From: Candidatus Berkelbacteria bacterium
GTDB taxonomy: Bacteria; Patescibacteriota; UBA1384; XYA2-FULL-43-10; CAINNR01
NCBI GenBank assembly: GCA_037142675.1
Contig: JBAXAF010000004.1
Location: 326 to 64,325, forward strand
Direction: 5' to 3'
Length of the DNA stretch: 64,000 nucleotides
Shown one piece after another: positions 10,695-62,517 of this stretch (position 1 is the first letter of the stretch; each line of letters starts with the position of its first letter). The notes under the pieces are model-generated. The model had not been told where the DNA came from and did not search any database. It worked only from the letters and a program-made list of their open reading frames with translations. The position numbers and the translations under genes are program-made.

Positions 10695-10719
10695 CAGGTT
10701 CGGAGCCGTTTCCGAGGGA
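10668..10719 (+). repeat. 52-nt hairpin-containing direct repeat, copy 1 (overlaps the 3' end of gene 1)
   Basis: ctttcggaagaccgctctgaaccgtagcaggttcggagccgtttccgaggga; about 92% identical to 11137-11188. Confidence 0.8.
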
Positions 10720-10756
10720 AATCAAGTGCTGGCGAGCCAAAACGCAAGGAAATAAC

Positions 10757-11131
10757 ATGAGTGGTACAGTTGACGATTTGATGGCAGCGCTTCGGATGAT
10801 CGACAGTCACTCGCAGCAGCTTGATGAAGAAAAAGAGACCCTGGCGTTGGCGCGGCGTGTCATCTCCGATCGTCACTTCCGGCAGCTGGTTCAGCGGCTG
10901 GAAACCGATCGGGTTGGATTGGCACGCGAGATCCTCGAAGCCGAGCAGATCCGCATCGACAACACCCCGATCGAAGATCTGTCGCTGTCGGTTCGGACAT
11001 ACAACGGCTTGAAGAAGAGTGGTATCAACACCCTCGGAGAGCTGGCTGAGTGCACGAAGGAGAAGTTGGCAGGCATCCGCAACTGGGGCCGCCGCTGCCA
11101 GGAAGAAGTAGATGAGATTCTGAAGAAATAG
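10757..11131 (+). CDS. Standalone RNA polymerase alpha-subunit C-terminal-domain-like protein
   Basis: IEDLSLSVRTYNGLKKSGINTLGELAECTKEKLAGIRNWGRRCQEEVDEILKK resembles the RpoA alpha-CTD helix-hairpin-helix. Confidence 0.6.
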   Translation: MSGTVDDLMAALRMIDSHSQQLDEEKETLALARRVISDRHFRQLVQRLETDRVGLAREILEAEQIRIDNTPIEDLSLSVRTYNGLKKSGINTLGELAECTKEKLAGIRNWGRRCQEEVDEILKK

Positions 11132-11136
11132 GAGTG

Positions 11137-11188
11137 CTTTCGGACGACCGCTCTGAACTGTAACAGGTTCGGAGCCGTTTCCGAGGGA
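11137..11188 (+). repeat. 52-nt direct repeat, copy 2
   Basis: ctttcggacgaccgctctgaactgtaacaggttcggagccgtttccgaggga. Confidence 0.8.
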
Positions 11189-11214
11189 GATAATCAGAAA
11201 GGTGGTTATGAAGT

Positions 11215-31689: not shown

Positions 31690-32442
31690 ATGTTTGTTAA
31701 ACAGCTTGAACAATTAGGACTCAATGAAACAGAAGCCAAAACATACTTGGCGCTTTTGAAAATCGGCAGTTCCTCGGTCGGAACTTTAAGCAAAGAATCG
31801 GGCATTGCTAGGACGACTCTTTACTATTCCATTGAAGAGTTGAAGAAGAAGGGTTTTGTCTTTGAAAAGCTTATAGATCAGAAAAAGCGCTTGATCCCAC
31901 GATCGCCGGAGTTCTTGGGTAAAAAAGCTGAGAAACTAGCGCAGCAGGCTCATGAGACGGCTAAGTCGATTTCCAGTCTTATTCCAGCATTAAAAAAGCT
32001 AGCCAAGGAAGATAGCTCTTATTCGACAGTCAACCACTATGAAGGCAAAGAGAGTGTTTGGGAAGTTTTTGAGATTATTCTGCGATCAAATAAAGATAGT
32101 TTGTGGTTTGGCTTTGGTCAGAGTTTTCTTGAGAATTATGATTTTGATTATTTTGTAACCAATTTCAGTAAAAAACGCCGACAGTTTGGACGCACAAAAT
32201 CCTTTAACATAATCCCGCCATTCAAAAGTGCAGCAAAAATAGCCACAAGGGGAGAAACCGATTTTCAAGAATTTCGGTTCTTGGGTAAAGATCAGAACTT
32301 TAATGCTGGTATTTGTATATTTGGAAATAAAATAGCAATTTTTTCATATGACAATGTTTTGTCGGCGACTTTAATTCAAGGCGACGCAATCGCAGAAATA
32401 GCTAGCACTATGTTTAAAATGATATGGAAATCTCTGAGCTAA
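31690..32442 (+). CDS. TrmB-family HTH regulator (paralog 3)
   Basis: LGLNETEAKTYLALLKIGSSSVGTLSKESGIARTTLYYSIEEL; promoter TTGACA-17-TAAAAT at 31625-31653. Confidence 0.8.
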   Translation: MFVKQLEQLGLNETEAKTYLALLKIGSSSVGTLSKESGIARTTLYYSIEELKKKGFVFEKLIDQKKRLIPRSPEFLGKKAEKLAQQAHETAKSISSLIPALKKLAKEDSSYSTVNHYEGKESVWEVFEIILRSNKDSLWFGFGQSFLENYDFDYFVTNFSKKRRQFGRTKSFNIIPPFKSAAKIATRGETDFQEFRFLGKDQNFNAGICIFGNKIAIFSYDNVLSATLIQGDAIAEIASTMFKMIWKSLS

Positions 32443-34314: not shown

Positions 34315-35094
34315 TTGAAAAAAGGAAAAGGAATGCCAAAGATAAATTTAGAACAATTTGGGATGAGCAGTGAGGAAGCCAAGGTATATTTGGCTCTAGT
34401 AAAGCGTGGGTCGTCGGGAGTAATGGATATCTCCCATGAATCAAATCTTAGTCGCTCAACCACCTATTATCATTTGGAAGCCCTGCTTTCCAAAGGACTG
34501 GTTTCACAATCGTTTAATGGCAAGAAGCACATTTACACACCATCAAAGCCAAAGGTTTTAGAACGAATCTTAGAACAAAAGGAACTGGAACTTGCGGATC
34601 AAAAACAAAGTTTACCCAGCTTGCTAAAACGGATTGAAAACATTGCCGCCCAACAGGCGACGGATCCGGAAGCACAAATATTAAAGGGTAAAATTGGTCT
34701 TTTACAGATTCTTGACAGTGTTCTTGGTGCTTCGGGTGACATTTACTTCATTGGCTCGCATGATGTTGTTCTCAAAAACGAGAGCTTGTTTTCAACAGAA
34801 TTTTTTCTTCGTAATTTTACAGCCAAACGCCGGCAAAAAGGAAAAAGTGTTGCCTGGATCATTGGCGATGAAAGTGAAATTACTTTGCGCCAGAAGCGCG
34901 AACAAGATACGGAGTTTCGGAAAATTAAAGTTTGGTCAGAACTTGCGAACATGAATGGCGGTTTAATTGTCTATGGCTCAAAGGTGTTGTTTTACAGTGT
35001 TTCAGGAGAAGCTACAGCTTATATCATCCACAATCCAGTAACTTCCGAGATCTTAAAAGTTATGTTTAAAATGATATGGAGTTCATTGGAATAA
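34315..35094 (+). CDS. TrmB-family HTH regulator (paralog 4)
   Basis: FGMSSEEAKVYLALVKRGSSGVMDISHESNLSRSTTYYHLEAL. Confidence 0.8.
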   Translation: MKKGKGMPKINLEQFGMSSEEAKVYLALVKRGSSGVMDISHESNLSRSTTYYHLEALLSKGLVSQSFNGKKHIYTPSKPKVLERILEQKELELADQKQSLPSLLKRIENIAAQQATDPEAQILKGKIGLLQILDSVLGASGDIYFIGSHDVVLKNESLFSTEFFLRNFTAKRRQKGKSVAWIIGDESEITLRQKREQDTEFRKIKVWSELANMNGGLIVYGSKVLFYSVSGEATAYIIHNPVTSEILKVMFKMIWSSLE

Positions 35095-35789: not shown

Positions 35790-35882
35790 TAGTGAAATCA
35801 ATTTCTAATATCTAACTCCTAATTTCTAAACAAATACCAAATGTGAAATAAAAAATCTGCAAACGAGTTGTAGATTTTTTTT

Positions 35883-36466: not shown

Positions 36467-36597
36467 ACAGTTTCTAACCGATTCTAGCATTTTCAAAGTC
36501 GAATGACAACCGCTTGACAGCATCTCTTAGCGTCTGTTACGTTCATGGGGCCGAAAGGCGTACCTATCAAACGCTCTTGAAAGGAGCGAATACAATC

Positions 36598-37995
36598 ATG
36601 TCGGATACTCTTCTGTCTGCGGACGAGATCTGGGCTGCAGCGTTGCCGCTCCTTACCGAGCGGATTAGGCTCACGTCGATTGTCACTATGTTACGCAATG
36701 CTGAGGTTATCAGCTACGATGGCACGACGTTTGTGCTTGCTGTGAATGGTGACTTTTCCAGGGGGTTGCTTGTGGACGGTTTGCATCTTCCGACGATTAC
36801 CACCTGCTTGGAGCAAGTCGCCAAACAGCCAGTTCAACTTCAGGTTGAGGCGTCAGCTAATGCTGTGCCTTTGGCTGCTGTTGGATGTGCTGCAGAGCAA
36901 GTGCGACAGGAAAGTTTGCCCGTGGCTCAGCCACTGAATACCAGGTCGTCGCATGAGCAGCTTGAGACTATGCCGCTCAACGACCGTCATACCTTCGACA
37001 ACTTTGTTATGGCTGACTGCAATCGTTTTGCATTCAGCGCTGCCCAACAGGTTTGCCGAAACCCCGGGCGCAGCTACAATCCACTGCTCATCCACAGTAA
37101 GTCGGGTTTGGGCAAGACCCACCTGATGCAAGCGATCGGGCACGAGATACGCTCCCAGCACAGTGACATGGAAGTCGTCTACGTGTCCGCCGAGAACTTC
37201 GTCAACCAGATCATCTCTGCTATCCGCGACAATCGCACCGCCGAGTTCAGGCGGCGCTACCGCTACGTGGATGTCTGGCTGGTGGACGACATCCAGTTCA
37301 TCGCCGCCCTTGATGGCCCGGCGTCCGAAGAGGAGTTCTTCCACACCCTCAACACACTGTGTATCAACGACAAGCAAGTCGTCATCGCGTCGGATGTGCC
37401 GCCTCGTCAGTTGCAGATCGTGAATGTCCGTCTACGGAGCCGCCTCGAGATGGGAATTTTGGCCGACTTGCGTGCTCCGGATCTCGAAACTCGCATCGCC
37501 ATTCTCGAGAAAATGGCTGAGGCGGAGAAGACTCATATTCCTCGTGAAGTTTTGGAGTATTTGGCCAAGAAGGTAGAGAACAATATCCGAGTTCTTGGTG
37601 GGGCACTGCTGCAGTTAGTCGCCTATGCATCGTTGCATGGTAAACTAACTCTGGCGCTGGCCGGAGAAGCTCTGGAGAGCTACTCCACCAGCAAAGATGG
37701 GCGGCAGTTCAGTCTGGCCGAGATTGTTACCTACATCGCTGAACGATTCACCCAGAAGGCAAGTGATATCACTGGCCCAAAACGGAGCAAGGAGCTCGCC
37801 TGGCCACGGCAAGTAGCGATTTACCTCTGTCGGGAGCTGACCGACTACTCGCTGAGTGATATCGGTCACTTCTTCAACGACCGAGACCACTCAACCATCA
37901 ACTATAATTATGGAGTGGTACGCGACAGGATAGGAGAGGACGAGCAAACCCTCTGGCTGATGAACGACATGAAGGCACAACTGCGCGGTAGCTAG
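36598..37995 (+). CDS. Second, GC-rich DnaA-family replication initiator paralog (cassette J)
   Basis: Start MSDTLL (RBS aaaggagcg); AAA+ SKSGLGKTHLMQAIGHE; C-terminal HTH ...RQVAIYLCRELTDYSLSDIGHFFNDRDHSTINY...; terminator ccgccctgtgtatccgggcgg plus T-run at 38008-38040. Confidence 0.8.
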   Translation: MSDTLLSADEIWAAALPLLTERIRLTSIVTMLRNAEVISYDGTTFVLAVNGDFSRGLLVDGLHLPTITTCLEQVAKQPVQLQVEASANAVPLAAVGCAAEQVRQESLPVAQPLNTRSSHEQLETMPLNDRHTFDNFVMADCNRFAFSAAQQVCRNPGRSYNPLLIHSKSGLGKTHLMQAIGHEIRSQHSDMEVVYVSAENFVNQIISAIRDNRTAEFRRRYRYVDVWLVDDIQFIAALDGPASEEEFFHTLNTLCINDKQVVIASDVPPRQLQIVNVRLRSRLEMGILADLRAPDLETRIAILEKMAEAEKTHIPREVLEYLAKKVENNIRVLGGALLQLVAYASLHGKLTLALAGEALESYSTSKDGRQFSLAEIVTYIAERFTQKASDITGPKRSKELAWPRQVAIYLCRELTDYSLSDIGHFFNDRDHSTINYNYGVVRDRIGEDEQTLWLMNDMKAQLRGS

Positions 37996-48682: not shown

Positions 48683-49312
48683 ATGAAAGTAAAAGAAAAA
48701 ATTATGCACAAAGTAAACCTTTCAAAATTCATGAAAAAGAATATCCCCGACATTCACACCGGAGATACTGTTAAAGTTCACCAGAAAATCAAAGAAGGTG
48801 ACAAGGAGCGCGTACAGATTTTTGAAGGCCTGGTTATTGCCACCCACGGTGGGAAAAGCCTCGATGGTTCGTTTACTGTTCGCAAAGAATCATTTGGCGT
48901 TGGCGTTGAAAGAATTTTCCCAGTTCACTCCCCACGTGTTGTTAAAATAGAACGAATTAAACAATCAAAAGTTCGTCGAAGCAAACTATATTTTATGCGC
49001 GAACTTTCCGGTAAAAATGCCAGGTTGAAAGAATTAAATCGCGATTACGCAATGTGGGAAGAAAAAGGCGTTGAAGAAGAGCTAGAAAAAATCGCCGAAG
49101 AAACTGCCAAACTTGCTGAAGCCGCCGCCGCCGAAAAAGAAGCCGAAGAAGCCGAATTTGAGAAAAAGGCCGAAACTGCCATTAAAGCCCATGGTCACAC
49201 TCCTGGCGAAAATGAGCCAAAAGACGAAGAAGATGTTACTCCAGGCTCAGCCGAAGATGAGAAAAAAGCCCAGTCAACTGAAGAAAAAGCCGACAAAGCC
49301 GCAGAAAAATAA
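48683..49312 (+). CDS. rplS: 50S ribosomal protein L19 with Glu/Ala/Lys-rich C-terminal extension
   Basis: ...TGDTVKVHQKIKEGDKERVQIFEGLVIATHGG... Confidence 0.88.
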   Translation: MKVKEKIMHKVNLSKFMKKNIPDIHTGDTVKVHQKIKEGDKERVQIFEGLVIATHGGKSLDGSFTVRKESFGVGVERIFPVHSPRVVKIERIKQSKVRRSKLYFMRELSGKNARLKELNRDYAMWEEKGVEEELEKIAEETAKLAEAAAAEKEAEEAEFEKKAETAIKAHGHTPGENEPKDEEDVTPGSAEDEKKAQSTEEKADKAAEK

Positions 49313-49363
49313 TATTTACTTGCTCTATAGAAAAAACGCCCCAGAAATGGTGGCGTTTTTTGG
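49297..49363 (+). repeat. 67-nt direct repeat copy 1 (rplS 3' end plus terminator)
   Basis: agccgcagaaaaataatatttacttgctctatagaaaaaacgccccagaaatggtggcgttttttggt. Confidence 0.9.
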
Positions 49364-49429: not shown

Positions 49430-50848
49430 ATGGGCGATAATGAAGACGAACTACAATCACTTGGGGAAGAGCAACGAATATTTGAGGCCCAGCAGGACGA
49501 AGCAGCGCGGTTGGCTGCGTCTACCCGCGAAGCGGAGCTGCGGGCTGATCACATTGCTCATGTGGCGGCGGCTAGCCACTCTGATCTTAGAAAAGCTGCG
49601 GTCGAACGGGACGCAGAGATGAGGGCGACTGGTTTGGCTGAGATACGCGAAACACTGGGTTCGCCCGAAGGTGTTCAGGAAAAAGCCGACGTACTAAGAT
49701 CAGAATTTGACGCCAGCTTGCTCGAGATTGCAGAATTAAGACAAAGCATTGCAAGAATCAGGGAATTTGTCCCAGAAGGCAGGCCAATGTCACCAGTTCT
49801 TGCAACTAAGATTGAGGCAATCGAACAGCGTCGAGCTGGAATTGAGAATGGTCTAGGTGCATTGCTGCAAAAGTCAGACGAGGCAAAAAGTTTAGCAGAG
49901 AATGTTAAAAGTTACGATCGGCTAAAGACTGAAATCGATCTGCTCCGTCAGGGAACAGATGAAATCTATGCCATGCCTGGAGTCGCTGATATACTTTACC
50001 AAGAAGCGATTGATACAGACGAAAAGGAAACTTGGGCTGTTGAAGCCGGGAAACAGGAGCGTCGAATAGCCAGAGAGCAAGCATTGGCTATCGAAAAAGA
50101 AACCGCCCAAGCGGCCGAAAAGGAGAAATCGCTCAAAGAAGAGATAATCAAGAAAATAAGTGATCGCGCTAGCCGCATACCGACAAATACAGGCACGGAA
50201 AAAGACCCTCGCCGAGTTGAGTTCACTGAGCCATTAATTTCTGCTTTTTTAGATGATGCATTGGAACAATCTGGAATTAATGGAATTGAACTAACCGCAG
50301 CTAGTGCCGACAGGAGAAGAGAGTTAATTAGAGCCGTAGCTCAACAAATTGAATTTGGTTTAAATACCCGTTGGAATGGACAAGACTATCCCAATGGCTT
50401 TGGCTCTGATCCAAGCGAGGCAAAAAGGGTTTATGCTCAAAGTGATCCTAAGAACTTCGGAAGACAACTTGGTAACATGCTGGGGACTCAAATGCACGAG
50501 GCGGGTAGTCCTGATGTGCTAGGCCATGTTATTGGTTCCGATAGTGGCGTTCGGGTTCGTGAGGCTCGTAAATGGCATAGAAGCATTCCGTTTATTGTTG
50601 GTTTTGCTAGGGGAACACAGGAGGTTCGTTCGGCAACAAAAATTCAAGAACAACCATATCGTTTGGTTGACGCCCATGCTTCGCAGGCTTTATTTGGAGG
50701 TCTAGCAAGTCGTGTAAGGCTTGGTGAAATGGTTTTCAGAGATAATATTGCCAGATCTGCGTTTGAGCAAGGAGTTACAAGGTCTGAGCAAATTTATCAG
50801 AGAGCTCATAGCGTCGACGCCAATGAACAGGTAGCCGCAGAAAAATAA
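49430..50848 (+). CDS. Hypothetical coiled-coil protein (472 aa) flanked by direct repeats
   Basis: RBS taggagc; moderately GC-rich; ends ...QVAAEK, reusing the repeat-encoded last codons. Confidence 0.6.
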   Translation: MGDNEDELQSLGEEQRIFEAQQDEAARLAASTREAELRADHIAHVAAASHSDLRKAAVERDAEMRATGLAEIRETLGSPEGVQEKADVLRSEFDASLLEIAELRQSIARIREFVPEGRPMSPVLATKIEAIEQRRAGIENGLGALLQKSDEAKSLAENVKSYDRLKTEIDLLRQGTDEIYAMPGVADILYQEAIDTDEKETWAVEAGKQERRIAREQALAIEKETAQAAEKEKSLKEEIIKKISDRASRIPTNTGTEKDPRRVEFTEPLISAFLDDALEQSGINGIELTAASADRRRELIRAVAQQIEFGLNTRWNGQDYPNGFGSDPSEAKRVYAQSDPKNFGRQLGNMLGTQMHEAGSPDVLGHVIGSDSGVRVREARKWHRSIPFIVGFARGTQEVRSATKIQEQPYRLVDAHASQALFGGLASRVRLGEMVFRDNIARSAFEQGVTRSEQIYQRAHSVDANEQVAAEK

Positions 50849-50901
50849 TATTTACTTGCTCTATAGAAAAAACGCCCCAGAAATGGTGGCGTTTTTTTGG
50901 T
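50833..50901 (+). repeat. 67-nt direct repeat copy 2
   Basis: Identical to copy 1 apart from one extra T in the T-run. Confidence 0.9.
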
Positions 50902-52907: not shown

Positions 52908-52990
52908 CCCGACTTTGTGCTAAGCTGAGGGAGATAAAATGAAGTTAGTACACGGATCTATTGCGCGGATTATCACGGATGGGAATAACA

Positions 52991-54409
52991 ATGGAACAAT
53001 CAAACAATAAAACAATGATTCGCACCCGCTTTGCTCCAAGTCCAACCGGTGAACTTCACATTGGTGGTGCCAGAACTGCACTATTTTCATATTTATTCGC
53101 CAAAAATCAAGCTGGCGAATTTTTGTTGCGCATTGAAGATACTGACCGCGAGAGATTTGTTGAGGGTGCAACTGAGCGGATTATCGAATCACTGGGCTGG
53201 CTGGGAATTGTAGCTGACAACGCTGGCAAGCCAATGGTTCAGTCTGAGCGCCTGGATAAATATCGAAAAGTCGCTTTTGATTTAGTAAATGAGGGGAAAG
53301 CTTACCTTTGCACTTGTACTAAAGAAAAACTAGCAGAGGACCGCGAGCGTCAGCAAAAAGAAAATAAACCACCGCGATACGAAGGTCATTGTCGTGATGC
53401 TAGTATAGACATTAAGACCCTAGCCGAAGGTTGCTACACCATCCGGATGAAGATGCCACAATCAGGGACTATTATTGTTGATGATTTGATCCGAGGCCGT
53501 GTGGAATTCGATGCGGCCTTAATTGACGATCAGGTAATTCTAAAATCTGACGGTTTCCCGACATATCACCTAGCATCTGTTGTTGATGACCACGAAATGG
53601 AAATTACCCATGTCATTCGCTCGGAAGAGTGGTTGTCGTCAACGCCAAAGCATGTTGTTCTTTATGAAATGCTGGGCTGGAGTGCGCCGGAATTTGCTCA
53701 CCCTTCAATGATTTTGGGACCGGATCACTCAAAGCTTTCGAAGCGCCACGGTGCAACATCAGTTATCGATTATAAAAATCAAGGTTATTTACCAAAGGCG
53801 CTAGTGAACTTTATGGCTCTTTTAGGCTGGAATCCGAAGGACGACAGAGAAATCTTCTCGCTAGAAGAATTAATTGGCGAATTTAAACTGGAAAACGTTA
53901 ATAAAAGTGGCGCAATTTTTGACATTGAAAAACTGAATTGGATGAATGGGGAGTATATCCGAGTCGAAAGTCGAAAGTCGAAAGTCGAAAGTCTGAAGGA
54001 TTTTGGTATAGAAGAATTATCAGCCGGAGAATTGGAACTAATTGGTCGTGGCGGGTTTAAAACTTTGAAAGAAGCGGCGGACTATATCATTCAATTGCGC
54101 AAAACACCGGAGTACGATTCATCACTCCTAATTTTCAAAAAATCCGATCGTGAAAAAACCACTATTGGGTTGAAAGCTGCCAGCTGTCAGCTGCTAGCTG
54201 TTAGTTTATGGGAACAAGAAGAAATACAAAAAACCTTGGAATCAATCGTATCTGAGAAAAATTTAACGAACGGCGATGTATTTTGGCCTGTGCGGGTGGC
54301 ACTATCTGGCGCGGAAAAGTCACCGAGTCCAGTTGAATTATTACTAGCTCTCGGTAAAGAAGAATCAATCAAACGAATTACAAAAGCTATAGATGACCTC
54401 AAAAACTAA
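52991..54409 (+). CDS. gltX: Glutamyl-tRNA synthetase
   Basis: IRTRFAPSPTGELHIGGARTALFSY (HIGH), KLSKRHG (KMSKS); start 52991 or 53015. Confidence 0.9.
   Translation: MEQSNNKTMIRTRFAPSPTGELHIGGARTALFSYLFAKNQAGEFLLRIEDTDRERFVEGATERIIESLGWLGIVADNAGKPMVQSERLDKYRKVAFDLVNEGKAYLCTCTKEKLAEDRERQQKENKPPRYEGHCRDASIDIKTLAEGCYTIRMKMPQSGTIIVDDLIRGRVEFDAALIDDQVILKSDGFPTYHLASVVDDHEMEITHVIRSEEWLSSTPKHVVLYEMLGWSAPEFAHPSMILGPDHSKLSKRHGATSVIDYKNQGYLPKALVNFMALLGWNPKDDREIFSLEELIGEFKLENVNKSGAIFDIEKLNWMNGEYIRVESRKSKVESLKDFGIEELSAGELELIGRGGFKTLKEAADYIIQLRKTPEYDSSLLIFKKSDREKTTIGLKAASCQLLAVSLWEQEEIQKTLESIVSEKNLTNGDVFWPVRVALSGAEKSPSPVELLLALGKEESIKRITKAIDDLKN
53963..53997 (+). repeat. Heptanucleotide tandem repeat (gtcgaaa)x4 plus a degenerate copy inside the gltX CDS
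   Basis: gtcgaaagtcgaaagtcgaaagtcgaaagtctgaa. Confidence 0.9.
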
Positions 54410-55511
54410 AACAAAGATTATCCAAGTTATTGCTGACTCGTCACTGGGTGGTGGGGCGAGGCATGTGCTGGGTTTAATATCAAACATTGATAAAGAAAAG
54501 TTTGAGGTTCTTTTAATTGCGCCGCGTGGTTGGTTAACGACTGAAGCAATGAAAATCAAGGATATCAAAGTAAAAATAGTCGAATTTAAAAGTAAGTGGG
54601 ATTTATCATCCCTCACAAAACTCAAAAAAGATGTCGCTGAGTTTCGCAAAAGTGGTGATCCCTTCGCGCCGATTATTATTCATGCTCACGGACCGCGAGC
54701 GGGATCTTTTTGTAAAATGGCACTACGACCAGGCGAGAAATTTATCTACACCGAGCATATTTGGAGTGATGATTATCATTTGAAAAATCCACTGAATTCA
54801 ATTTTGCAGAAGAGCGGACTTCGAGGAATTTACCGCCGATCAGATTCATTAATTGCTGTTTCAAAATCGGTCAAAACCTTTATTGAGAAATTTGGTGTTG
54901 ATAAAAATAAAATTACTATCATCCCAAACGCTGTGGAAATTAGTGATGATAATGCGGAAAAAAACCATTCGGATAAGTTAATGGTTGGCACTATCGGCAA
55001 TTTATATAAACAAAAAGGTCAGCAGTATTTAATTCAGGCATTTGCTAGGGTTGCCGCCAGTTTGCCGAAAGCCAGGCTGGAAATTATTGGTGACGGGCCG
55101 GAAAAGCAGAAACTACTGGACTTAATCAAAGAGTTAGATTTGGAATCCAGGGTGCAACTTTTGGGCAAAATTGACAAACCAAAAAGATATTTAGATAAGT
55201 GGGATTTGTTTGTTCTGCCATCGCTGTCGGAAACCTTTGGCTTAGTAATACTGGAAGCCTTTGCGTCTCGTGTCCCGGTTGTGGCAACACGGGTTGGTGG
55301 CATTCCTGAGCTGATTATTGATGACAAAACCGGCTACCTTGTCCCGCCGGCTGATTCTGAAAAATTGGCCAAAGCAATTTCTTATCTCTTGGCGGAAAAA
55401 AAGAAACGGGAAGCACTGGCCAGCGAAGCCTACGCGCTTTTGAAAAAGCACTACGATTGGGAAAAGGTAATTAAAGAAATTGAAAACGAATATTTAAAGC
55501 TCTCGAAATAA
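54393..55511 (+). CDS. GT4-family (group 1) glycosyltransferase
   Basis: ETFGLVILEAFASRVPVVATRVGGIPELI (EX7E region). Confidence 0.82.
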   Translation: MTSKTKTKIIQVIADSSLGGGARHVLGLISNIDKEKFEVLLIAPRGWLTTEAMKIKDIKVKIVEFKSKWDLSSLTKLKKDVAEFRKSGDPFAPIIIHAHGPRAGSFCKMALRPGEKFIYTEHIWSDDYHLKNPLNSILQKSGLRGIYRRSDSLIAVSKSVKTFIEKFGVDKNKITIIPNAVEISDDNAEKNHSDKLMVGTIGNLYKQKGQQYLIQAFARVAASLPKARLEIIGDGPEKQKLLDLIKELDLESRVQLLGKIDKPKRYLDKWDLFVLPSLSETFGLVILEAFASRVPVVATRVGGIPELIIDDKTGYLVPPADSEKLAKAISYLLAEKKKREALASEAYALLKKHYDWEKVIKEIENEYLKLSK

Positions 55512-55550
55512 AAAAATCCCCTTGTCCGAATAAATCGGACAAGGGGAGTG

Positions 55551-55731
55551 ATTATTGATTCCGCCATTTTTCCTCATTTCTTGCCCGCATCTCCGCAGCC
55601 TCCGTTGAGCTTTTGGCCTCCTCCATCCACTTGTCCGGGATCTCAATTCCCTTATCTTTGGCTATCTCGATGAAGTGGCAAACAACGTGCTCCCAGTCGG
55701 CGATCTTTACGTTTCTCAGGGCTGCCCACAA
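55551..55731 (-). CDS. GC-rich small ORF; either TTG-initiated 59 aa or a 70-aa ORF interrupted by an in-frame TGA
   Basis: Minus strand: ATG ACT GAG ... GAT CTG TGA TTG TGG GCA... = MTEQTELMDL*(L)WAALRNVKIADWEHVVCHFIEIAKDKG...; terminator ccccttgtccgaataaatcggacaagggg at 55517-55547. Confidence 0.4.
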
Positions 55732-55869
55732 TCACAGATCCATCAGCTCCGTCTGCTCAGTCATTTTAAACTCTTTTCCAGATACCTGATTGGCATCTAT
55801 TGTAATGTTGGGGCTAATTCCCCTCAGTTGCGGGCGCGATCTATTCGATCGTGCCCGGTTCTGATAAGG

Positions 55870-55956
55870 CTAGCTACAAAGCGATAGCATGAAATACATG
55901 GCGAAAAGGCCTATTATGATCCCCAAAACGACGATGACCAGGTTGAGAATTTCCAT
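55870..55956 (-). CDS. 28-aa single-TM peptide (MEILNLVIVVLGIIIGLFAMYFMLSLCS)
   Basis: RBS cgagg 7 nt upstream; downstream of the minus promoter TTGACG-17-TACAAT (56048-56076). Confidence 0.4.
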   Translation of the reverse strand: MEILNLVIVVLGIIIGLFAMYFMLSLCS

Positions 55957-56124
55957 TTTTTTCCTCGTGTCACGTGTCGGCTAATGTCGCCTGTAAGTTG
56001 TTTGCTCGCTTCAGACTTTTGGGTTGTTCCTTAGCCTGACAGGTAACATTGTACCATAACCTTAGCAATACGTCAATACAAAATGACGAAAAATTCTACT
56101 AAAATAACTTTAAAACGATCTCAT

Positions 56125-56154
56125 TTGACAAAATATGACGAGTTTTGCTATAAT
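56125..56154 (+). promoter_or_regulatory. Consensus promoter TTGACA-18-TATAAT for TrmB paralog 5
   Basis: ttgacaaaatatgacgagttttgctataat. Confidence 0.6.
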
Positions 56155-56193
56155 ATAGTCGTATATTAGTGACGAAAATAAGAGTAGTAAAAA

Positions 56194-56928
56194 ATGGAAA
56201 CTTTGGAGATTCTAAAATCAATTGGATTAAATGACAATGAAAGCAAGGTTTACCTAGCTGTCCTTGAACTCGGTGCATCGACGGTTTTGCCCATCTCAAA
56301 AAAGTCCGGAATAAAACGGACCTATTGTTACGATATTTTGGAAAGCTTGCTAAAAAAGGGTTTTGTTAGTCACTTTAGTAAAAATGGTCGCCGTCGCTAC
56401 CTGGCTGCTGACCCAAAGCAAATCGAGGCGTTGTTAGAAAATAAATTAAACCGATTTTCAGAAGCTTTGCCACAACTGCGGTCAATTTATAATTCATCGC
56501 CAGAAAAACCAACAATTCGATTTTTTGAGGGTAAGGAAATCAAAAATATTTATGAAATGTTGCCGTCAGCGAAATACATTGATTCCATAGCCTCCCCTGA
56601 GTACATTTACCAATATCTTGGCAATTACTTTGATGAAATTGTAAAATTAATAGCTAAAAAGAAGGTAGCTGTTCGGGAAATTGTGCCAGAGAAAAATAAG
56701 GATGCTGGCTATATTAAGAATTTTCAAAAGCCAGACGAGGAGCTTAGATTTTTACCAAAAGAAGTCCAGTTGTCGACGGATATAATAATTTTTGATGACA
56801 AGGTTGCACTGATTTCATTTGCAAAAAAGGTTCACGCGGTGTTAATTGAAAGTTCGAGTATTGTGGAGACTCAGCGCTATATGTTTGATTTGATCTGGCA
56901 GATGGCAAAAAGTCCGTCTTCGAGGTAG
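56194..56928 (+). CDS. TrmB-family HTH regulator (paralog 5)
   Basis: IGLNDNESKVYLAVLELGASTVLPISKKSGIKRTYCYDILESL. Confidence 0.8.
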   Translation: METLEILKSIGLNDNESKVYLAVLELGASTVLPISKKSGIKRTYCYDILESLLKKGFVSHFSKNGRRRYLAADPKQIEALLENKLNRFSEALPQLRSIYNSSPEKPTIRFFEGKEIKNIYEMLPSAKYIDSIASPEYIYQYLGNYFDEIVKLIAKKKVAVREIVPEKNKDAGYIKNFQKPDEELRFLPKEVQLSTDIIIFDDKVALISFAKKVHAVLIESSSIVETQRYMFDLIWQMAKSPSSR

Positions 56929-56948
56929 AATAAATTTATTGGAGGACT

Positions 56949-57707
56949 ATGTTTTGGCAGAAGGAAGAAAACCGAGGGTCTTGGGCGGCTTACACTGATG
57001 TGATGAAAATTCACCCAATTTCTCGTGTTACCGCCGATAAGGTTTTGGTTTTGGCGCCACATCCAGATGACGATGTTTTAGGTTGCGGAGGACTCTTGGC
57101 CGAGCTATCTGAGGCTGGTGCAAAAATCAAAGTGGTTTATTTTACTGATGGTTCTCGTGGCAACCGCGAGGCTAAGTTTTCTGAAAATTTAATCGCACAG
57201 AGGGAAGAAGAATCGGTTGAAGCTGGAAAAGTTTTAAAAATCTCTGAACAGAAATTTCTTCGGCTACCCCATAATTCCTTGAAGTCTAGTATTGAGTTGG
57301 CGGCGATTATCCGCAAAGAAATTGAGTTCGACAAACCTGACTTAATTTTAGCACCCTCATTTGAGGAACCGCACCCAGACCATTTAGCGGTTTTGGAGGC
57401 ACTAAATTTAGGTTTAAAAAATTATTCTGAAGGTTTAAATATTTGGTTGTATGAAGTTTTTGGAACCGGGCGGTTAAATCGCCTGTTTATTATAGATGAT
57501 TTTGTTGAAGTGAAAACAGAAGCTCTTAAGTGCCACAAAAGTCAGTACAAAATTAAAAAATATGACGAGGCAATATTGTCCTTGAATAAATTTCGGGCAC
57601 TGTCGGCTGGAATTGGAAATTATGCCGAGGGTTATTATTCCACCGGTCCGCGAACATTTCAAAAATTATTTGAGTTTTACCAGCGTCATCACGAAAGTAG
57701 AATTTGA
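56949..57707 (+). CDS. PIG-L/LmbE-family N-acetylglucosaminyl deacetylase (paralog 1)
   Basis: VLAPHPDDDVLGCGG zinc-binding motif. Confidence 0.8.
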   Translation: MFWQKEENRGSWAAYTDVMKIHPISRVTADKVLVLAPHPDDDVLGCGGLLAELSEAGAKIKVVYFTDGSRGNREAKFSENLIAQREEESVEAGKVLKISEQKFLRLPHNSLKSSIELAAIIRKEIEFDKPDLILAPSFEEPHPDHLAVLEALNLGLKNYSEGLNIWLYEVFGTGRLNRLFIIDDFVEVKTEALKCHKSQYKIKKYDEAILSLNKFRALSAGIGNYAEGYYSTGPRTFQKLFEFYQRHHESRI

Positions 57708-57740
57708 GGAGTTATCATTTCTAAGGTATTAAAAATCGTT

Positions 57741-58364
57741 TTGACAGGTGGGGCTTGTGGCGGAAAAACCACGACTATCGAAGCTGTCAAAAAAGATCTT
57801 GGTGATCGAGTTATTGTCGTCCCCGAAGTTGCATCTCAACTTATTCGGCCACTAGAAAAAGGAGGAGTCGGAATACCGGGCGTTGATATCGAGTGGTCGC
57901 AGGAATGGCAGGATGAATTACAACAACAAATTCTAGTAAAACAATTAAATGATGAAAACATATCGATTAGTGAAGCCGAAATGTTTGAAGGGCCGTCCAT
58001 CGTACTTTGCGACAGAGGAGTTCTCGACGGGGCCGTTTATATGTCTGGTGGGCTAGAAGAGTTTCTCGAAAAGTTTCATTTGGAGTACAGCGCTTGTATT
58101 TCGCGATACGATGCGATTATTCACCTCAATTCATTGGCTGTTGATGATCCGGAAAAATTCATCGAGTTTTTTAAATCAAACTCAGCAAGACATAGACAAG
58201 TTGACAAGGCGGCGTTACTTGATAAAGCGATTTTTGAGGTCTGGAAAGGCCACCAGAATCACCTGCGAGTTGCTTCGACTGAAGAGATGGAAGAAAAAAT
58301 TGAATTGGTGCTATCAGAAATACGAAAGGAATTAGGGCGGGTTAATGCAGAATTGGGGGGCTGA
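57741..58364 (+). CDS. P-loop NTPase (AAA_28 / nucleoside-kinase-like)
   Basis: TTG start; LTGGACGGKTTT Walker A. Confidence 0.6.
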   Translation: MTGGACGGKTTTIEAVKKDLGDRVIVVPEVASQLIRPLEKGGVGIPGVDIEWSQEWQDELQQQILVKQLNDENISISEAEMFEGPSIVLCDRGVLDGAVYMSGGLEEFLEKFHLEYSACISRYDAIIHLNSLAVDDPEKFIEFFKSNSARHRQVDKAALLDKAIFEVWKGHQNHLRVASTEEMEEKIELVLSEIRKELGRVNAELGG

Positions 58365-58428
58365 AATTGGTAGCGAGGGCAAGCTTGGGGTTATTTGAGT
58401 TTTATCAACGCCATCATGAAAGCAAAAT

Positions 58429-59184
58429 ATGAGCATTAAAAAACAATTTCTGTCGGCATTTAGAACTATGAATTTTGCTGCCGCTGAGGCTGGTTGGCGA
58501 ATTTTCACCAGTGGCGCCGATTTTAAAGTGGTGGAAGAATTACCAAATAATGATATTTTAATTATTGCCCCGCACCCGGATGATGAGATTTTTGCTTGCT
58601 CCGGAGTAATATCTAGAGTAAAAAAGGATCAAAAAATTAAAATAGCCTACATTTTTTCTGGAGATAAACTATCGCGATCAGAGCGAGCTAGTGCGAGAGA
58701 AGAAGAGTCAAAAAGTGCAGTAGAACAATCTGAAAATCTCGAGCAAATATTTTGTCGTCAACCAGACAATTCGATTGTGGACAAAGAAACAATTTATGAT
58801 CTTTCGACTATTATCTTGGAAATGAAACCAGGGATTATTCTAACGCCGAACTTTTCTTGCCCAAATGACGACCATCGTGAGGCGACGAAGGCAATTGTTG
58901 AGGCATTAAAACTGGCAAAAATAAAAGGCCAAGATCTCAAAGAAATTTCTATTTGGCTTTACGGCGTTTGGGGGCCATTACCGTATTTTAATCGATTGTT
59001 GAAAGTTGACGTAGATAAAAAAGAAAAGGCAATGGAGAAGTTCTTATCGCAACATAAGGACCGAAATTATATTAAGGCTATAAAATCGCTCGATGATTAC
59101 TATGGCGAAATTTACGGTTTAGCTTACTCCACCGAAGCCTTTTTCGCCGTGCCGGCAGATTTGCTGCTCAAGCTCTATAAATAA
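58429..59184 (+). CDS. PIG-L/LmbE-family deacetylase (paralog 2)
   Basis: IIAPHPDDEIFACSG. Confidence 0.8.
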   Translation: MSIKKQFLSAFRTMNFAAAEAGWRIFTSGADFKVVEELPNNDILIIAPHPDDEIFACSGVISRVKKDQKIKIAYIFSGDKLSRSERASAREEESKSAVEQSENLEQIFCRQPDNSIVDKETIYDLSTIILEMKPGIILTPNFSCPNDDHREATKAIVEALKLAKIKGQDLKEISIWLYGVWGPLPYFNRLLKVDVDKKEKAMEKFLSQHKDRNYIKAIKSLDDYYGEIYGLAYSTEAFFAVPADLLLKLYK

Positions 59185-59225
59185 ATTGAACTAATAAAAA
59201 ACTCTGGCGCCATGCCAGAGCCGTG

Positions 59226-59681
59226 TCATCCTCCATTTTTCTTGGCGATGTTCTTTTTCCGGCCAGATCCTTGGAGTGAAGCCATCAGCAACTTTTCATC
59301 ATCGGAGAGGTATCGGTTGCAGGCCTCGGCGATGCTGTGCTGGGTGCACTTCAGACGTTTGTGCATTTTGGCGGCAGACGGGTAGATGTTGGCTTTCAAG
59401 CGCCAGCGGACTGCGACCAAAACGCGTTTGGTTTTGTCGCAGGTATGACGTCCGCGTTGTCGTTTTGGCTTTTGGGGCCACTTGGTCTTTCTTTTTCTCT
59501 TCCGCTCTGCTGGCGCCAGATCCCTGGTCAAGATCTGCCCGATCCTTGTCCCGGTTACCCCGTAGTGCTTCCCCAGTTCCTCGTTGGTTTGGTACTTGCG
59601 TTCACCGCGGATCATCGCTCGAACTCGGGCGATCAGATCCTTGGTGTCAACTTTAGTTTCGGCCAAACTGACCACCTCCAT
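59226..59681 (-). CDS. GC-rich small DNA-binding protein with sigma-70 region-4-like HTH and basic tail
   Basis: EELGKHYGVTGTRIGQILTRDL; KRKRKTKWPQKPKRQRGR; promoter TTGACC-17-TATATT at 59694-59722, so the mRNA is (near-)leaderless; start 59681 or 59690. Confidence 0.5.
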   Translation of the reverse strand: MEVVSLAETKVDTKDLIARVRAMIRGERKYQTNEELGKHYGVTGTRIGQILTRDLAPAERKRKRKTKWPQKPKRQRGRHTCDKTKRVLVAVRWRLKANIYPSAAKMHKRLKCTQHSIAEACNRYLSDDEKLLMASLQGSGRKKNIAKKNGG

Positions 59682-59769
59682 CGTTCTCATGACAATATAG
59701 CGGAAAAAACAACTCCGGTCAATCAGCGGATTGATAATTAGGCACAAATATGGTAAAATTTTCTAGTAA

Positions 59770-59843
59770 TCCCGGGTAGTATAATGGCAGTACGGTGGAT
59801 TCTGGCTCCATTAATCTAGGTTCGACCCCTAGCCCGGGAACCA
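59770..59843 (+). tRNA. tRNA-Gln (anticodon CTG)
   Basis: tcccggg tagtataatggcagtac g gtgga ttctggc tccat ... ggttcgacccctagcccgggaacca. Confidence 0.8.
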
Positions 59844-59875
59844 ATTTTTGTTTCAGGGCAGGCGAGAGCGCGAAA

Positions 59876-59977
59876 GGGGTCGGGAAAAATGCTGTTTTCC
59901 CGCCGGAGGAAATTATTCAAAACCGTGGGTTTTGAAAAGCCTCGAAGAGGCGCGCGAGACCCCTAGCCCGGGAACCA
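59876..59977 (+). repeat. tRNA-linked structured element, copy 1 (ends in an exact copy of the tRNA-Gln 3' 20 nt)
   Basis: ggggtcgggaaaaatgctgttttcccg...ttcaaaaccgtgggttttgaa...gacccctagcccgggaacca. Confidence 0.8.
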
Positions 59978-59978
59978 T

Positions 59979-60055
59979 GGCCCGGTCGTCTAGTGGCCTA
60001 GGATACTTGGTTCTCATCCAAGAGATCATGGGTTCGACTCCCATCCGGGCTACCA
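59979..60055 (+). tRNA. tRNA-Glu (anticodon CTC)
   Basis: ggcccggtcgtctagtggcctaggatacttggttctcatccaagagatcatgggttcgactcccatccgggctacca; hairpin plus T6 terminator at 60058-60090. Confidence 0.8.
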
Positions 60056-60112
60056 TGAAAAGTGCATCACTTCGGTGATGCTTTTTTCATGGTAAATGGA
60101 AGTCGAACGGGA

Positions 60113-60208
60113 AGGGGTCGGGAAACGGGAGTTTCCCGCAGAGGAAGATAATAGAAACCGTGAGTTTCTATAAGCCGAAGGCGTGTGAGCCTCCCATCCG
60201 GGCTACCA
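60113..60208 (+). repeat. tRNA-linked structured element, copy 2 (ends in an exact copy of the tRNA-Glu 3' 18 nt)
   Basis: ggggtcgggaaacgggagtttcccg...atagaaaccgtgagtttctat...ctcccatccgggctacca; terminator ctgaagttttgcttcag plus T-run at 60213-60238. Confidence 0.8.
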
Positions 60209-60271
60209 AAAAATTCTGAAGTTTTGCTTCAGGATTTTTTGTTTTGATCAAATTGAGCTAGAATAGAGTGG

Positions 60272-61771
60272 ATGAAAAAATTTTTTCAGGCGCCTAATTT
60301 TAGAAGTTGGCAGTTTTGGCTAAAGATTTTTTTGGTCGTTCTAATTATTGCTGGCGGGATCGCTGGTATATTGTTGATTAAAAAACACCGAGTAGCGGCA
60401 CCAGCCGCTGAGATTAAAGCTCCTGTTGAAGTTGCTGTTACCCCAATTGCTCCACCAGAAGAAGCAAAAAAAGCTGTTATCGCTGCGCCTCCTAAGGTTA
60501 AGACTTCTGGAAAAACTTCAACTAAGGCCAATTCAGATGGATCAAAGACGGTTACATCTGCCACTGGACCAGTTAATTCTGCCAACACAGCTGTTGCTGC
60601 CGCGGCTGGGCCTTCGGCTGGTATTGCCGGTATTCATTATATCGACCAAACAGGTTCGCATGCTGATTTGGGTGATCAACTTAAAACGTATATGTCGAAT
60701 AACTTATTAGTTAAAGGCGAAGTTAGCAGTATGTACTCGATAATTCTGCAAAACGCCGGAGACACCGGCTGGGCCGGACTTTATTCCGGGTCGTATAATC
60801 AAGACGCGAACGGCCAAATAACTTCCGCCTGGGGCTATATAACGCTAAACAGCTACTATTATGAAGGTAATCCATACTTCCTTGACTACATGAAACTAAT
60901 TTTGTCGCACGAATATGGCCACCACTACTCCTTGTATTACAAATGGATAGTTTGGCAGATTCCTTCTGGTCAACGCTTCCCCGATTCTTATTATTCCGTT
61001 CGGCCGCTGACAAAGTCAGGAACAGCTCCTGATTACTCACTGGGTTGGGCCAACTGCGATGCGGAAATAATTGCGGAGGATTACTCTTATCTCTATTCCG
61101 GTTATGGCTATCATGGCATGGCAGCGACCTACGGTTATCCATCTGCTGGGACAAAAACTTGGTTGGTTAATGAGCCAGCCGGGTCATCTGCTTCAGCGCC
61201 AGCGTCAGACAGCGCACCAACAGTCTCAATTACCGCACCAGCCAGTGGCGCAACTGTTTCTGGAACGGTGCCATTTTCAGCCACGGCTTCTGATGATAAT
61301 GGTGTAACAAAGGTGAGCTTTTACATTGACAACAATTTATTAGTTGAAGACTCCGTCGCACCATATGAAACGTCATTCAATTCTGCAAGTTATGGCAATG
61401 GAGTTCATTCTTTGCGGGCTAGAGCAACTGACACGGCTGGACAAACTGCTGATTCGACAGTCTCTATTATCATTAATAACGCGACGACCGACACGGAAAA
61501 CCCGACGGTTACCATTGGCGACCCAGCTGACAATCCTCATGCTTGGGCAAATGGTAATTTACACATTGCAGTTACGGCAACAGACAACGTTGCGGTGCAG
61601 AAAATCGAGATCTATATTAATGATCAACTAGCTCTAACTGAGAACTCAGGATCAGTTTCTGCTGTTTGGAATTATAATGATGCTCCAGCCGGAACCTACA
61701 CACTAAAAGCAAAAGCCTACGATGCTTCCGGCAACACCGCCGAAACTAGCATTGTGGTAAACAAAAGTTAG
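60272..61771 (+). CDS. Membrane-anchored putative zinc metalloprotease (HExxH) with C-terminal Ig-like repeats
   Basis: N-terminal TM; Pro/Ala-rich linker; LSHEYGHH; two repeated modules of about 90 aa. Confidence 0.6.
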   Translation: MKKFFQAPNFRSWQFWLKIFLVVLIIAGGIAGILLIKKHRVAAPAAEIKAPVEVAVTPIAPPEEAKKAVIAAPPKVKTSGKTSTKANSDGSKTVTSATGPVNSANTAVAAAAGPSAGIAGIHYIDQTGSHADLGDQLKTYMSNNLLVKGEVSSMYSIILQNAGDTGWAGLYSGSYNQDANGQITSAWGYITLNSYYYEGNPYFLDYMKLILSHEYGHHYSLYYKWIVWQIPSGQRFPDSYYSVRPLTKSGTAPDYSLGWANCDAEIIAEDYSYLYSGYGYHGMAATYGYPSAGTKTWLVNEPAGSSASAPASDSAPTVSITAPASGATVSGTVPFSATASDDNGVTKVSFYIDNNLLVEDSVAPYETSFNSASYGNGVHSLRARATDTAGQTADSTVSIIINNATTDTENPTVTIGDPADNPHAWANGNLHIAVTATDNVAVQKIEIYINDQLALTENSGSVSAVWNYNDAPAGTYTLKAKAYDASGNTAETSIVVNKS

Positions 61772-62517
61772 ATCTTTTTTCCGATTCCCCAAAGTATGTC
61801 AAAAATATTTTTAAAAACCTTAACCAGGTTTTTATTTTTGATTTCAATCACCATTGGCTCTGTTGCCGAATGGAGAACTAAAATGTCATCGCCAAAAATA
61901 TTGAAGTTTCCCAAGTCAGCCATCTTTTTTTCGATTAGCCGATATTCATATAACTTTGGAAGACTATTTTTTAATTTCATTTCGAAATCGTTTTCATTAA
62001 AAATCAACATTTGCCATTTAATCATTCTTTCTTGTTGGATTTTCAGAAATTTGCTGGTTAGTTTTCCCATATGCTCTTGCCAAAGAGGCCCGATTGACCC
62101 GGCGATAAAATCTGTTGTTCCAGTTGGCAACTTAGAATAAGCATCCAGCCAAAATCGGCGATAGGACTCCAGCCCTTCATAAATGGTTATTTCAGGTGAT
62201 TCTGCTTGGATCATCTTTTTTAATTCAGGCACTAAGGTTTTTGCTAGTTGAAATTCCTCAGCAGCGATATCAAGCAACTTTTCTGGATCAAGCGATTGGA
62301 AGTACTTAATTTTTGATTTCTCAAAACTAAAGACTAGTTTTTTGCTAATAAGTTTTTTTAATGATTCATAAACCACACTGCGATGCAGCTGAGTTTTTTC
62401 AATGATTTTTCCTGCGGAAGTTGTACCGATTTCTAAAAGGGCAGTGTAAGTTTTGGCTTCACTGCTAGTTAGGTGTAATTGTTCCAAGCGCGATCTAATT
62501 TGCTCGTTAATTGCCAT
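61768..62517 (-). CDS. TrmB-family HTH regulator (paralog 6)
   Basis: LHLTSSEAKTYTALLEIGTTSAGKIIEKTQLHRSVVYESLKKL. Confidence 0.8.
   Translation of the reverse strand: MAINEQIRSRLEQLHLTSSEAKTYTALLEIGTTSAGKIIEKTQLHRSVVYESLKKLISKKLVFSFEKSKIKYFQSLDPEKLLDIAAEEFQLAKTLVPELKKMIQAESPEITIYEGLESYRRFWLDAYSKLPTGTTDFIAGSIGPLWQEHMGKLTSKFLKIQQERMIKWQMLIFNENDFEMKLKNSLPKLYEYRLIEKKMADLGNFNIFGDDILVLHSATEPMVIEIKNKNLVKVFKNIFDILWGIGKKI

Follow-up and report, generated by a model that had tools for sequence, protein, structure and literature searches.

A P-loop NTPase gene between two PIG-L-family deacetylase genes and bracketed by a duplicated gene end in a Candidatus Berkelbacteria genome

Candidatus Berkelbacteria is a lineage of the candidate phyla radiation (CPR). 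On contig JBAXAF010000004.1 of the Berkelbacteria assembly GCA_037142675.1, a P-loop NTPase gene lies between two genes of the LmbE/PIG-L deacetylase family, designated here PIG-L1 and PIG-L2, and is bracketed by two copies of the 3′ end of PIG-L1. It is an insertion relative to genomes in which the two PIG-L genes overlap or nearly abut. The stretch of this contig that was analysed (64,000 nucleotides, nt) is referred to as the window, and all coordinates given without a prefix refer to it.

Organization of the locus

A first-pass annotation of the window described a GT4-family glycosyltransferase gene, two PIG-L genes and a P-loop NTPase gene between the latter, and all four are present as described, each with Pfam support. 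The features of the locus are as follows.

52961-54409, forward strand: gltX (glutamyl-tRNA synthetase), which is conserved and anchors the locus on the left (tRNA-synt_1c and Anticodon_2 in the orthologues at all related loci)
54393-55511, forward strand: GT4-family glycosyltransferase (Pfam Glycos_transf_1, 1.4e-44; Glyco_transf_4, 1.2e-21)
56949-57707, forward strand: PIG-L1, LmbE/PIG-L-family deacetylase (Pfam, 7e-27)
57666-57708, forward strand: T1, the working 3′ end of PIG-L1 and left repeat copy (last 13 residues and stop, LFEFYQRHHESRI*)
57717-58364, forward strand: AAA_28 P-loop NTPase gene (Pfam, 1.9e-18)
58391-58433, forward strand: T2, a non-coding relic of the PIG-L1 3′ end (would read LFEFYQRHHESKI*)
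58429-59184, forward strand: PIG-L2, LmbE/PIG-L family (Pfam, 4e-18)
59200-59222: terminator-like hairpin closing the unit after PIG-L2

The gene order gltX-GT4-PIG-L1 is conserved in the related contigs recovered (L001, L004, L007, L010, L015 and L016). Both GT-B halves of the GT4 protein score above the Pfam gathering thresholds (152.1 bits, cut-off 26.4; 77.9 bits, cut-off 28.5), and PIG-L1 and PIG-L2 match PF02585 at 94.9 and 66.5 bits (cut-off 28.2), which places both in the LmbE/PIG-L deacetylase family. PIG-L1 has the metal and catalytic motifs PHPDDD and PHPDH and a conserved C-terminal tail, ...YQRHHESRI. PIG-L2 has PHPDDE and PNDDH; all six aligned PIG-L2 orthologues have Asn in place of the first His of the second motif, reading PN(D/I/A)DH where PIG-L1 has PHPDH. 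The two proteins are 31% identical, each has its own set of orthologues, and their sequences mark them as old paralogues.

A duplicated PIG-L1 3′ end on both sides of the NTPase gene

The region 54000-60000 contains one outstanding repeat, a 43-nt direct repeat formed by T1 and T2 that is identical at 36 of 43 positions (84%), including the first 14 nt, and the similarity stops at both ends. The repeat has an ungapped score (+1/-2) of 22, compared with 13.1 ± 1.3 (maximum 19) in 60 dinucleotide shuffles of the same region. A duplicated PIG-L1 end ahead of PIG-L2 had been noted at 57662-57707 and 58385-58431; the repeat is real, with its limits corrected to 57666-57708 and 58391-58433. T2 lies within the 64-nt spacer that follows the NTPase gene and is non-coding, and its TGA overlaps the ATG of PIG-L2 as ATGA.

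The repeated segment is not a motif common to all PIG-L proteins. When six PIG-L1 and six PIG-L2 orthologues are aligned, the ...(Y/F)xRHH(E/H/Q)Sxx extension occurs in the PIG-L1 set only; the ...YQRHHES(K/R)I tail is restricted to PIG-L1 orthologues, and PIG-L2 orthologues end ~10 residues earlier, in ...KLYK.

Neither copy has predicted secondary structure (folding z score ~0.2), hairpin or inverted repeat, and a search of 55400-60300 against Rfam returned nothing besides two tRNAs. T2 was therefore rejected as a structured RNA (z = 0.2) or att site. A role for T2 as a Shine-Dalgarno sequence or translation element of PIG-L2 was also set aside, since PIG-L2 has no recognisable Shine-Dalgarno sequence in any lineage, whatever DNA lies upstream.

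The PIG-L1/PIG-L2 junction in related genomes

The corresponding junction in the relatives is arranged as follows, with identities to PIG-L1 of the window.

L010 (GCA_964401195.1), the closest relative, PIG-L1 98%: NTPase gene and T2 the same as in the window
L001-L003, PIG-L1 87%: a 121-amino acid gene of the 23S-rRNA-IVP family between inverted repeats of 35-47 nt, with no tail duplication
L004 (GCA_026397235.1), PIG-L1 85%: ATGA overlap (-4 nt), with ...gaaagcaaaatATGAgcat identical to the end of T2
L027 (PIG-L1 85%) and L007 (PIG-L1 65%): no PIG-L2, and a terminator hairpin after PIG-L1
L017 (more distant) and L032 (a fifth lineage): 6 nt between PIG-L1 and PIG-L2
L013, PIG-L1 64%: ~50 nt between PIG-L1 and PIG-L2
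L015, PIG-L1 57%: 115-nt spacer between PIG-L1 and PIG-L2
L016, PIG-L1 54%: 112-nt spacer between PIG-L1 and PIG-L2

BLASTN aligns PIG-L1 of L004 through T1 and, separately, the L004 tail and PIG-L2 colinearly with T2 and PIG-L2 of the window (L004 6717-7508 with 58390-59181). Together, the L004 overlap, the 6-nt gaps in L017 and L032 and this colinear alignment identify T2 by comparison as the former junction of the PIG-L1 end and the PIG-L2 start, retained ahead of PIG-L2.

The same junction holds other inserts in sister lineages, and its sequences mark it as an insertion hot spot. The L001 insert (L001 6758-7209) has inverted repeats of the (AAAATCAAAA)n type, and the 115-nt spacer of L015 (L015 6756-6874) consists of the same repeat type and folds into a long hairpin (z = -5.4); it is possibly an empty version of the L001 insert, resembling a miniature inverted-repeat transposable element. 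The 112-nt spacer of L016 (L016 3618-3729) has similar tracts but neither an inverted repeat nor a significant fold. In L027 the hairpin and downstream DNA that follow PIG-L1 are those that follow PIG-L2 in the window, and L007 has a similar hairpin directly after PIG-L1.

The NTPase gene and its relatives

The NTPase matches PF13521 at 67.7 bits (cut-off 27) over profile positions 1-164 of 164 and has the Walker A sequence GGACGGKTT. The first-pass annotation placed its start at TTG 57741, which would remove the strand before the P-loop, and no ATG, GTG or TTG keeps that strand. ATT 57717 is most probably the start, because GAGGAG (57706-57711) lies 5 nt ahead of it, the Pfam match begins at 57732, and aligned homologues begin MSKVxKI, in register with this codon; the same ATT is present in L010.

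At its 3′ end the window gene has a run of six G residues (58355-58360) where L010 has five. The frame is shifted, translation stops at 58362-58364, and the last 11 residues are lost; with five G residues the gene would stop at TGA 58396-58398, inside T2. The L010 NTPase is intact, with 226 amino acids ending ...AELGAEIGSEGKLGVI*, which aligns with ...SEGKPKIS and ...SEGKPRTI of homologues. The six-G run is either an assembly error or a real frameshift, and the window copy should be annotated with its probable ATT start and this one-base frameshift. A programmed frameshift fusing the NTPase to T2 was considered and rejected, as the five G residues of L010 leave the gene intact and the six of the window merely truncate it; run lengths of four or seven, needed to reach the T2 frame, were seen in neither. 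PIG-L1 and the NTPase gene share a reading frame, with TGA and three codons between them. Read-through or recoding of this TGA was likewise rejected, since the window genes are normal with translation table 11 and the NTPase gene has its own Shine-Dalgarno sequence.

NTPase orthologues are few (26 matches), and two of the best belong to this gene string. L016 has the order gltX-GT4-PIG-L1-PIG-L2-CYTH-AAA_28 and L017 has PIG-L1-PIG-L2-AAA_28, with orthologues 62% and 57% identical to that of the window, values close to the PIG-L identities for the same pairs of genomes. Because these orthologues lie downstream of PIG-L2 and are diverged about as much as the PIG-L genes, the NTPase gene looks like a long-standing operon neighbour that moved, or was re-acquired from a relative, and not like a foreign cassette. 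AAA_28 (PF13521) NTPases are often fused or adjacent to CYTH domains. The homologue in L016 conforms to this in adjoining a CYTH gene, and homologues P0141, P0145 and P0146 are fused to CYTH or thymidylate kinase. The NTPase has no NCBIfam family match, and its PDB matches, to designed Kelch-type proteins only, are spurious and offer no informative solved structure. PADLOC has no match for GT4, PIG-L1, the NTPase or PIG-L2, and only a marginal CasR-like helix-turn-helix match for the TrmB-family regulator encoded upstream of PIG-L1 (see below); a defence-system or phage origin was rejected, as neither PADLOC nor PHROGs returned anything relevant.

Divergence of the repeat copies and recent spread of the insertion

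Six of the seven differences between T1 and T2 are at third codon positions (P = 0.007 if differences were uniform; P = 0.04 under neutral drift of T2 with synonymous change only in T1), and outgroups place the sole non-synonymous difference, AGA versus AAA, in T1. Since the copies differ almost only at third positions, T2 appears to have been coding for most of its separation from T1. Their third-position identity is 8/14, and that between PIG-L1 orthologues of the equidistant sister lineages (window/L010, L001, L004 and L027) is ~50%. The tail closest to T2 is that of L004 (5 differences), a genome with the overlap, and the tail closest to T1 is that of L027 (6 differences), a genome without PIG-L2; T1 and T2 differ from each other at 7 positions. 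T1 and T2 probably derive from different alleles, T2 having been carried in with PIG-L2 by recombination between strains, and an in-situ duplication in which some constraint kept T2 unchanged is less likely. One difference has an obvious rationale: T2 ends ATA TGA, which contains the PIG-L2 ATG, and T1 ends ATT TGA, which removes a now-useless start.

The window and L010 are ~82% identical over the upstream genes, including gltX and GT4, 93.4% identical from the PIG-L1 start to the tRNA genes (56949-60055), and 86% identical past tRNA-Glu. Because the rise from 82% to 93% coincides exactly with the PIG-L1 start and identity falls to 86% after tRNA-Glu, the comparison identifies the whole 3.1-kb segment 56949-60055 as one exchanged between lineages. 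Within it, differences amount to ~8% in the PIG-L bodies and 2.4% in 57600-58500. Nei-Gojobori estimates of synonymous divergence (dS) between the window and L010 are 0.40 for PIG-L1 (omega 0.02), 0.082 for the NTPase (omega 0.20) and 0.45 for PIG-L2 (omega 0.055). This contrast in dS indicates that the NTPase gene and both repeat copies have a much younger window/L010 ancestor than the flanks, the signature of an insertion allele that spread recently by homologous recombination through the flanking genes.

The sequences at the two junctions are compatible with microhomology-mediated illegitimate recombination, as judged from diverged comparison sequences. On the right, the intact NTPase gene of L010 ends GGG GTT ATT TGA, the last eight bases of which (TTATTTGA) are the first eight of the repeat; the NTPase homologue of L021 ends GTTATTTAA. 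On the left, the end of T1 and the NTPase leader read AATTTGAGGAGttatcATT, compared with AATTTGAGGAAaatATG upstream of the L016 NTPase gene, and AATTTGAGGAG resembles AATTTGAGGAA, the native upstream sequence of that gene.

Comparable repeats elsewhere in the window

Similar arrangements, in which a duplicate of the preceding gene's end borders a gene, recur in the window, as the first-pass annotation had also noted. The first instance is a 65-nt direct repeat (49297-49361 and 50833-50897, 100% identical) comprising the last 16 nt of rplS and its terminator. It flanks a 472-amino acid open reading frame (ORF; 49430-50848) for which the repeat supplies the stop and the last four codons. This gene end is the same in L010; L001 repeats the terminator only (41 nt, 88%), and L004 has neither gene nor repeat. 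The second is a 56-nt direct repeat (10667-10722 and 11136-11191, 93% identical) with an internal hairpin, flanking a 124-amino acid ORF (10757-11131) that lies in a patch of 50% G+C beside a TrmB gene. By eye this ORF looks like an RNA polymerase alpha C-terminal domain; it has no Pfam or PHROG match.

The three repeat pairs share no sequence and have no recombinase nearby, and we read them as independent scars of one general process, not as sites of a dedicated system. A broader proposal is that the shuffling of single genes is routine in Berkelbacteria, and perhaps in other CPR bacteria, each gene carrying a duplicate of the 3′ end or terminator that belongs to the gene upstream of its insertion point, with the three in the window being such recombinase-free cassettes. 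Through its direct repeats of 40-65 nt a unit would then be able to leave as a circle, and short-homology recombination would bring it into related genomes again. We regard this generalization as improbable.

Origin of the interrupted gene order

The most probable account of these observations is that T2 is the scar of the former junction, and that the NTPase gene was placed between the PIG-L genes by illegitimate recombination and later spread between strains. In the ancestor of this Berkelbacteria group PIG-L1 and PIG-L2 would have been adjacent, with the PIG-L1 stop overlapping or nearly touching the PIG-L2 start, and the NTPase gene would normally have come shortly after PIG-L2 in this series of genes. 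Microhomology-mediated illegitimate recombination in the window lineage would have placed it between PIG-L1 and PIG-L2, and both genes would have stayed intact only in products with the last 43 nt of PIG-L1 doubled: T1 would complete PIG-L1 with its conserved RHHES tail, and T2 would keep the native 5′ context of PIG-L2 and the ATGA junction. Later, homologous recombination within the PIG-L genes on either side would have carried the rearranged segment into diverged strains.

Illegitimate and homology-facilitated illegitimate recombination have reportedly been described in naturally transformable bacteria. The locus resembles such events in the joining of a gene-sized segment at microhomologies of ~8-10 nt, in a short duplication of the recipient and in homologous flanks for spread. 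It differs in being known from sequence alone, in that the 43-nt duplicate is a gene end kept by selection, and in that the microhomologies are inferred from diverged homologues. Literature searches returned nothing relevant.

Several observations weigh against this account. Neither the donor nor an intermediate state was found; a T2 relic without the NTPase gene, or a tandem duplicate, occurs in no genome, single-protein scans of genome and metagenome contigs for a donor gave few loci, and a protein search with PIG-L2 found no relative between 81% and 94% identity. The microhomology argument draws on homologues with 50-60% divergence. On the DNA available, the NTPase gene is missing from this locus in the closest sister lineages (L001, L004, L027 and L032), and re-acquisition from outside is therefore as possible as a move within the operon. 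Finally, 14 codons have little statistical power and cannot settle an allelic versus in-situ origin of T2, and the ATA TGA/ATT TGA part of the contrast may reflect convergence imposed by whether or not an ATG overlaps there.

The principal alternative is an in-situ event in one genome, either tandem duplication of the T-PIG-L2-NTPase segment, after which the first PIG-L2 and the second NTPase copy were lost, or insertion at a 43-nt staggered break, with T1 and T2 identical at birth and diverging later. The NTPase gene does lie downstream of PIG-L2 in L016 and L017, a single duplication at the TTATTTGA microhomology gives the observed right junction, and the first 14 nt of T1 and T2 are exactly shared. 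However, a non-coding T2 is expected to change at all codon positions, and only one of the seven differences is at position 1 or 2 and is assigned to T1. The third-position identity is about that of orthologues from separate lineages, such that T2 would need a long stasis. There are also no relics of lost copies, with just 9 nt from the T1 stop to the NTPase start and nothing after PIG-L2. Tandem duplication-random loss is a model of gene-order change that is classical for mitochondrial genomes. The locus is like it in that a gene takes up a new position among its neighbours and part of a duplicated gene persists as non-coding DNA, but there is no second relic here, and the T2 substitutions fit a different allele better than an old in-situ copy. 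An in-situ origin is therefore unlikely, although it is the strongest competitor to illegitimate recombination between strains.

A self-contained mobile cassette, with the 43-nt repeats as att or recombination sites of a site-specific or circle-mediated system targeting gene 3′ ends, is very improbable. The first-pass annotation spoke of a cassette with a duplicated 3′ end, and in favour of a mobile one are the repeats of upstream 3′ ends around the two other window genes, an NTPase block much younger than its flanks, and the presence of other inserts at the same junction in L001, L015 and L016. However, the gene is a regular operon neighbour in L016 and L017, and no integrase or transposase was matched by Pfam or PHROG among the neighbouring genes scanned (~51.9-62.5 kb). 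T1 and T2 lack hairpin or inverted-repeat structure, and their 16% divergence follows a coding-like pattern, whereas att cores are conserved; the other two repeat pairs are unrelated to them in sequence. At this junction L001 has an insert with inverted repeats but without a tail duplication, and the NTPase homologues elsewhere (L020 and L021), whose flanks were not searched for repeats, are not preceded by PIG-L. That the interrupted order is ancestral, and L004-type genomes arose through deletion of the NTPase gene by recombination between T1 and T2, has next to no credibility: 43-nt direct repeats can mediate such deletions, and the L004 tail is mixed (mostly T2-like but with CAC as in T1), but the more distant L013, L015, L016, L017 and L032 all have PIG-L1 followed by PIG-L2 with no NTPase gene between them, two of these carry it after PIG-L2, and the window and L010 have only recently diverged in the NTPase block.

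Operon remodelling is thus plain at this locus but not exceptional: genome changes of this type are already known, the phylum is one that has received little study, and no new molecular system is involved. The locus offers a clean natural example of a gene entering between two overlapping genes with both spared, the overlap being duplicated and the spare copy left as a datable relic, and it shows an insertion spreading between strains ~18% diverged via recombination in flanking genes.

DNA between GT4 and PIG-L1

Although the GT4 and PIG-L genes are present as first described, they are not contiguous in the window, being separated by the following features.

55517-55547: hairpin with a 13-bp stem, bidirectional and terminator-like, directly 3′ of GT4
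55548-56124, reverse strand: lineage-specific insert with small ORFs (first ~0.5 kb at 48% G+C)
55552-55731, reverse strand: small ORF in the insert, 59 amino acids
55870-55956, reverse strand: small ORF in the insert, a 28-amino acid hydrophobic peptide
56125-56154, forward strand: sigma-70-type promoter upstream of TrmB (TTGACA-18-TATAAT, 12 of 12 consensus matches, with a TG extension)
56194-56928, forward strand: TrmB-family regulator gene (Pfam TrmB, 2e-17)

The promoter sits in an AT-rich stretch after the 48% G+C insert DNA. GT4 and PIG-L1 are 12-85 nt apart in L010, L004 and L001, from which the hairpin, insert, promoter and TrmB gene are all absent; a TrmB gene between GT4 and PIG-L1 occurs in the window genome only. 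This series of features after GT4 suggests that the present transcription unit is probably TrmB-PIG-L1-NTPase-PIG-L2, and GT4 and the deacetylases should no longer be annotated as one operon in the window genome.

Four TrmB-family genes with Pfam support are present in the 64 kb (31690-32442, 34315-35094, 56194-56928 and 61768-62517), together with a fifth ORF of similar appearance (9235-10065; no Pfam scan), and TrmB gene positions vary between related genomes. A 43-nt repeat (32409/35061; 77%) corresponds to the C-terminal ends of two of the TrmB genes.

Predicted functions of GT4 and the deacetylases

The combination of GT4 and PIG-L genes had been read as a bacillithiol- or mycothiol-type enzyme set, and the locus does resemble the BshA/BshB and MshA/MshB pairs in encoding a GT4 protein close to LmbE/PIG-L-family deacetylases. 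However, GT4 is transcriptionally separated from the deacetylases in the window genome, and its scores fall below every NCBIfam equivalog cut-off: 151.9 bits against BshA (TIGR03999; cut-off 273.7), covering the C-terminal half only, and 86.1 bits against MshA (TIGR03449; cut-off 462.5). PIG-L1 scores 69.8 bits against BshB1 (TIGR04001; cut-off 182.5), 43.4 against BshB2 (TIGR04000; 195.3), 20.9 against MshB (TIGR03445; 224.4) and 20.8 against Mca (TIGR03446; 277.2), and PIG-L2 scores 49.5 and 33.8 against BshB1 and BshB2 (182.5 and 195.3). Among solved structures PIG-L1 matches an archaeal diacetylchitobiose deacetylase best (3we7, E 3e-18), with BshB1 (6p2t, E 4e-9) behind it, and no BshC/MshC-like cysteine ligase is present among ~40 window ORFs scanned with Pfam. 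The thiol reading is not supported, because the equivalog scores are far below their cut-offs and a cysteine ligase gene is absent from the window ORFs scanned, and a thiol-pathway label should not be applied.

Family knowledge points most likely to transfer of an N-acetyl-hexosamine by GT4 followed by de-N-acetylation, which would yield an envelope glycoconjugate containing glucosamine. The most plausible generic chemistry is that of glycosylphosphatidylinositol-type PIG-A/PIG-L and bacterial glucosamine-lipid synthesis, with which the locus shares the two enzyme families and the reaction order. It differs from them in that its deacetylases are a pair of paralogues, in one of which Asn takes the place of His in the second motif, and in being known from its genes alone. 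The NTPase is probably a passenger with respect to this chemistry.

Other features of the window

Two full-length dnaA paralogues, each with a DnaA ATPase domain and a C-terminal helix-turn-helix, lie 33 kb apart at 2431-3882 (reverse strand) and 36514-37995 (forward strand), and the former adjoins dnaN (891-1997). A family of ~48-nt intergenic sequences rich in CTAAA/TCTAA (..TCTAAATTCTAAACAAA..) occupies six sites at gene boundaries between 20570 and 42148 (e.g. 35795-35842).

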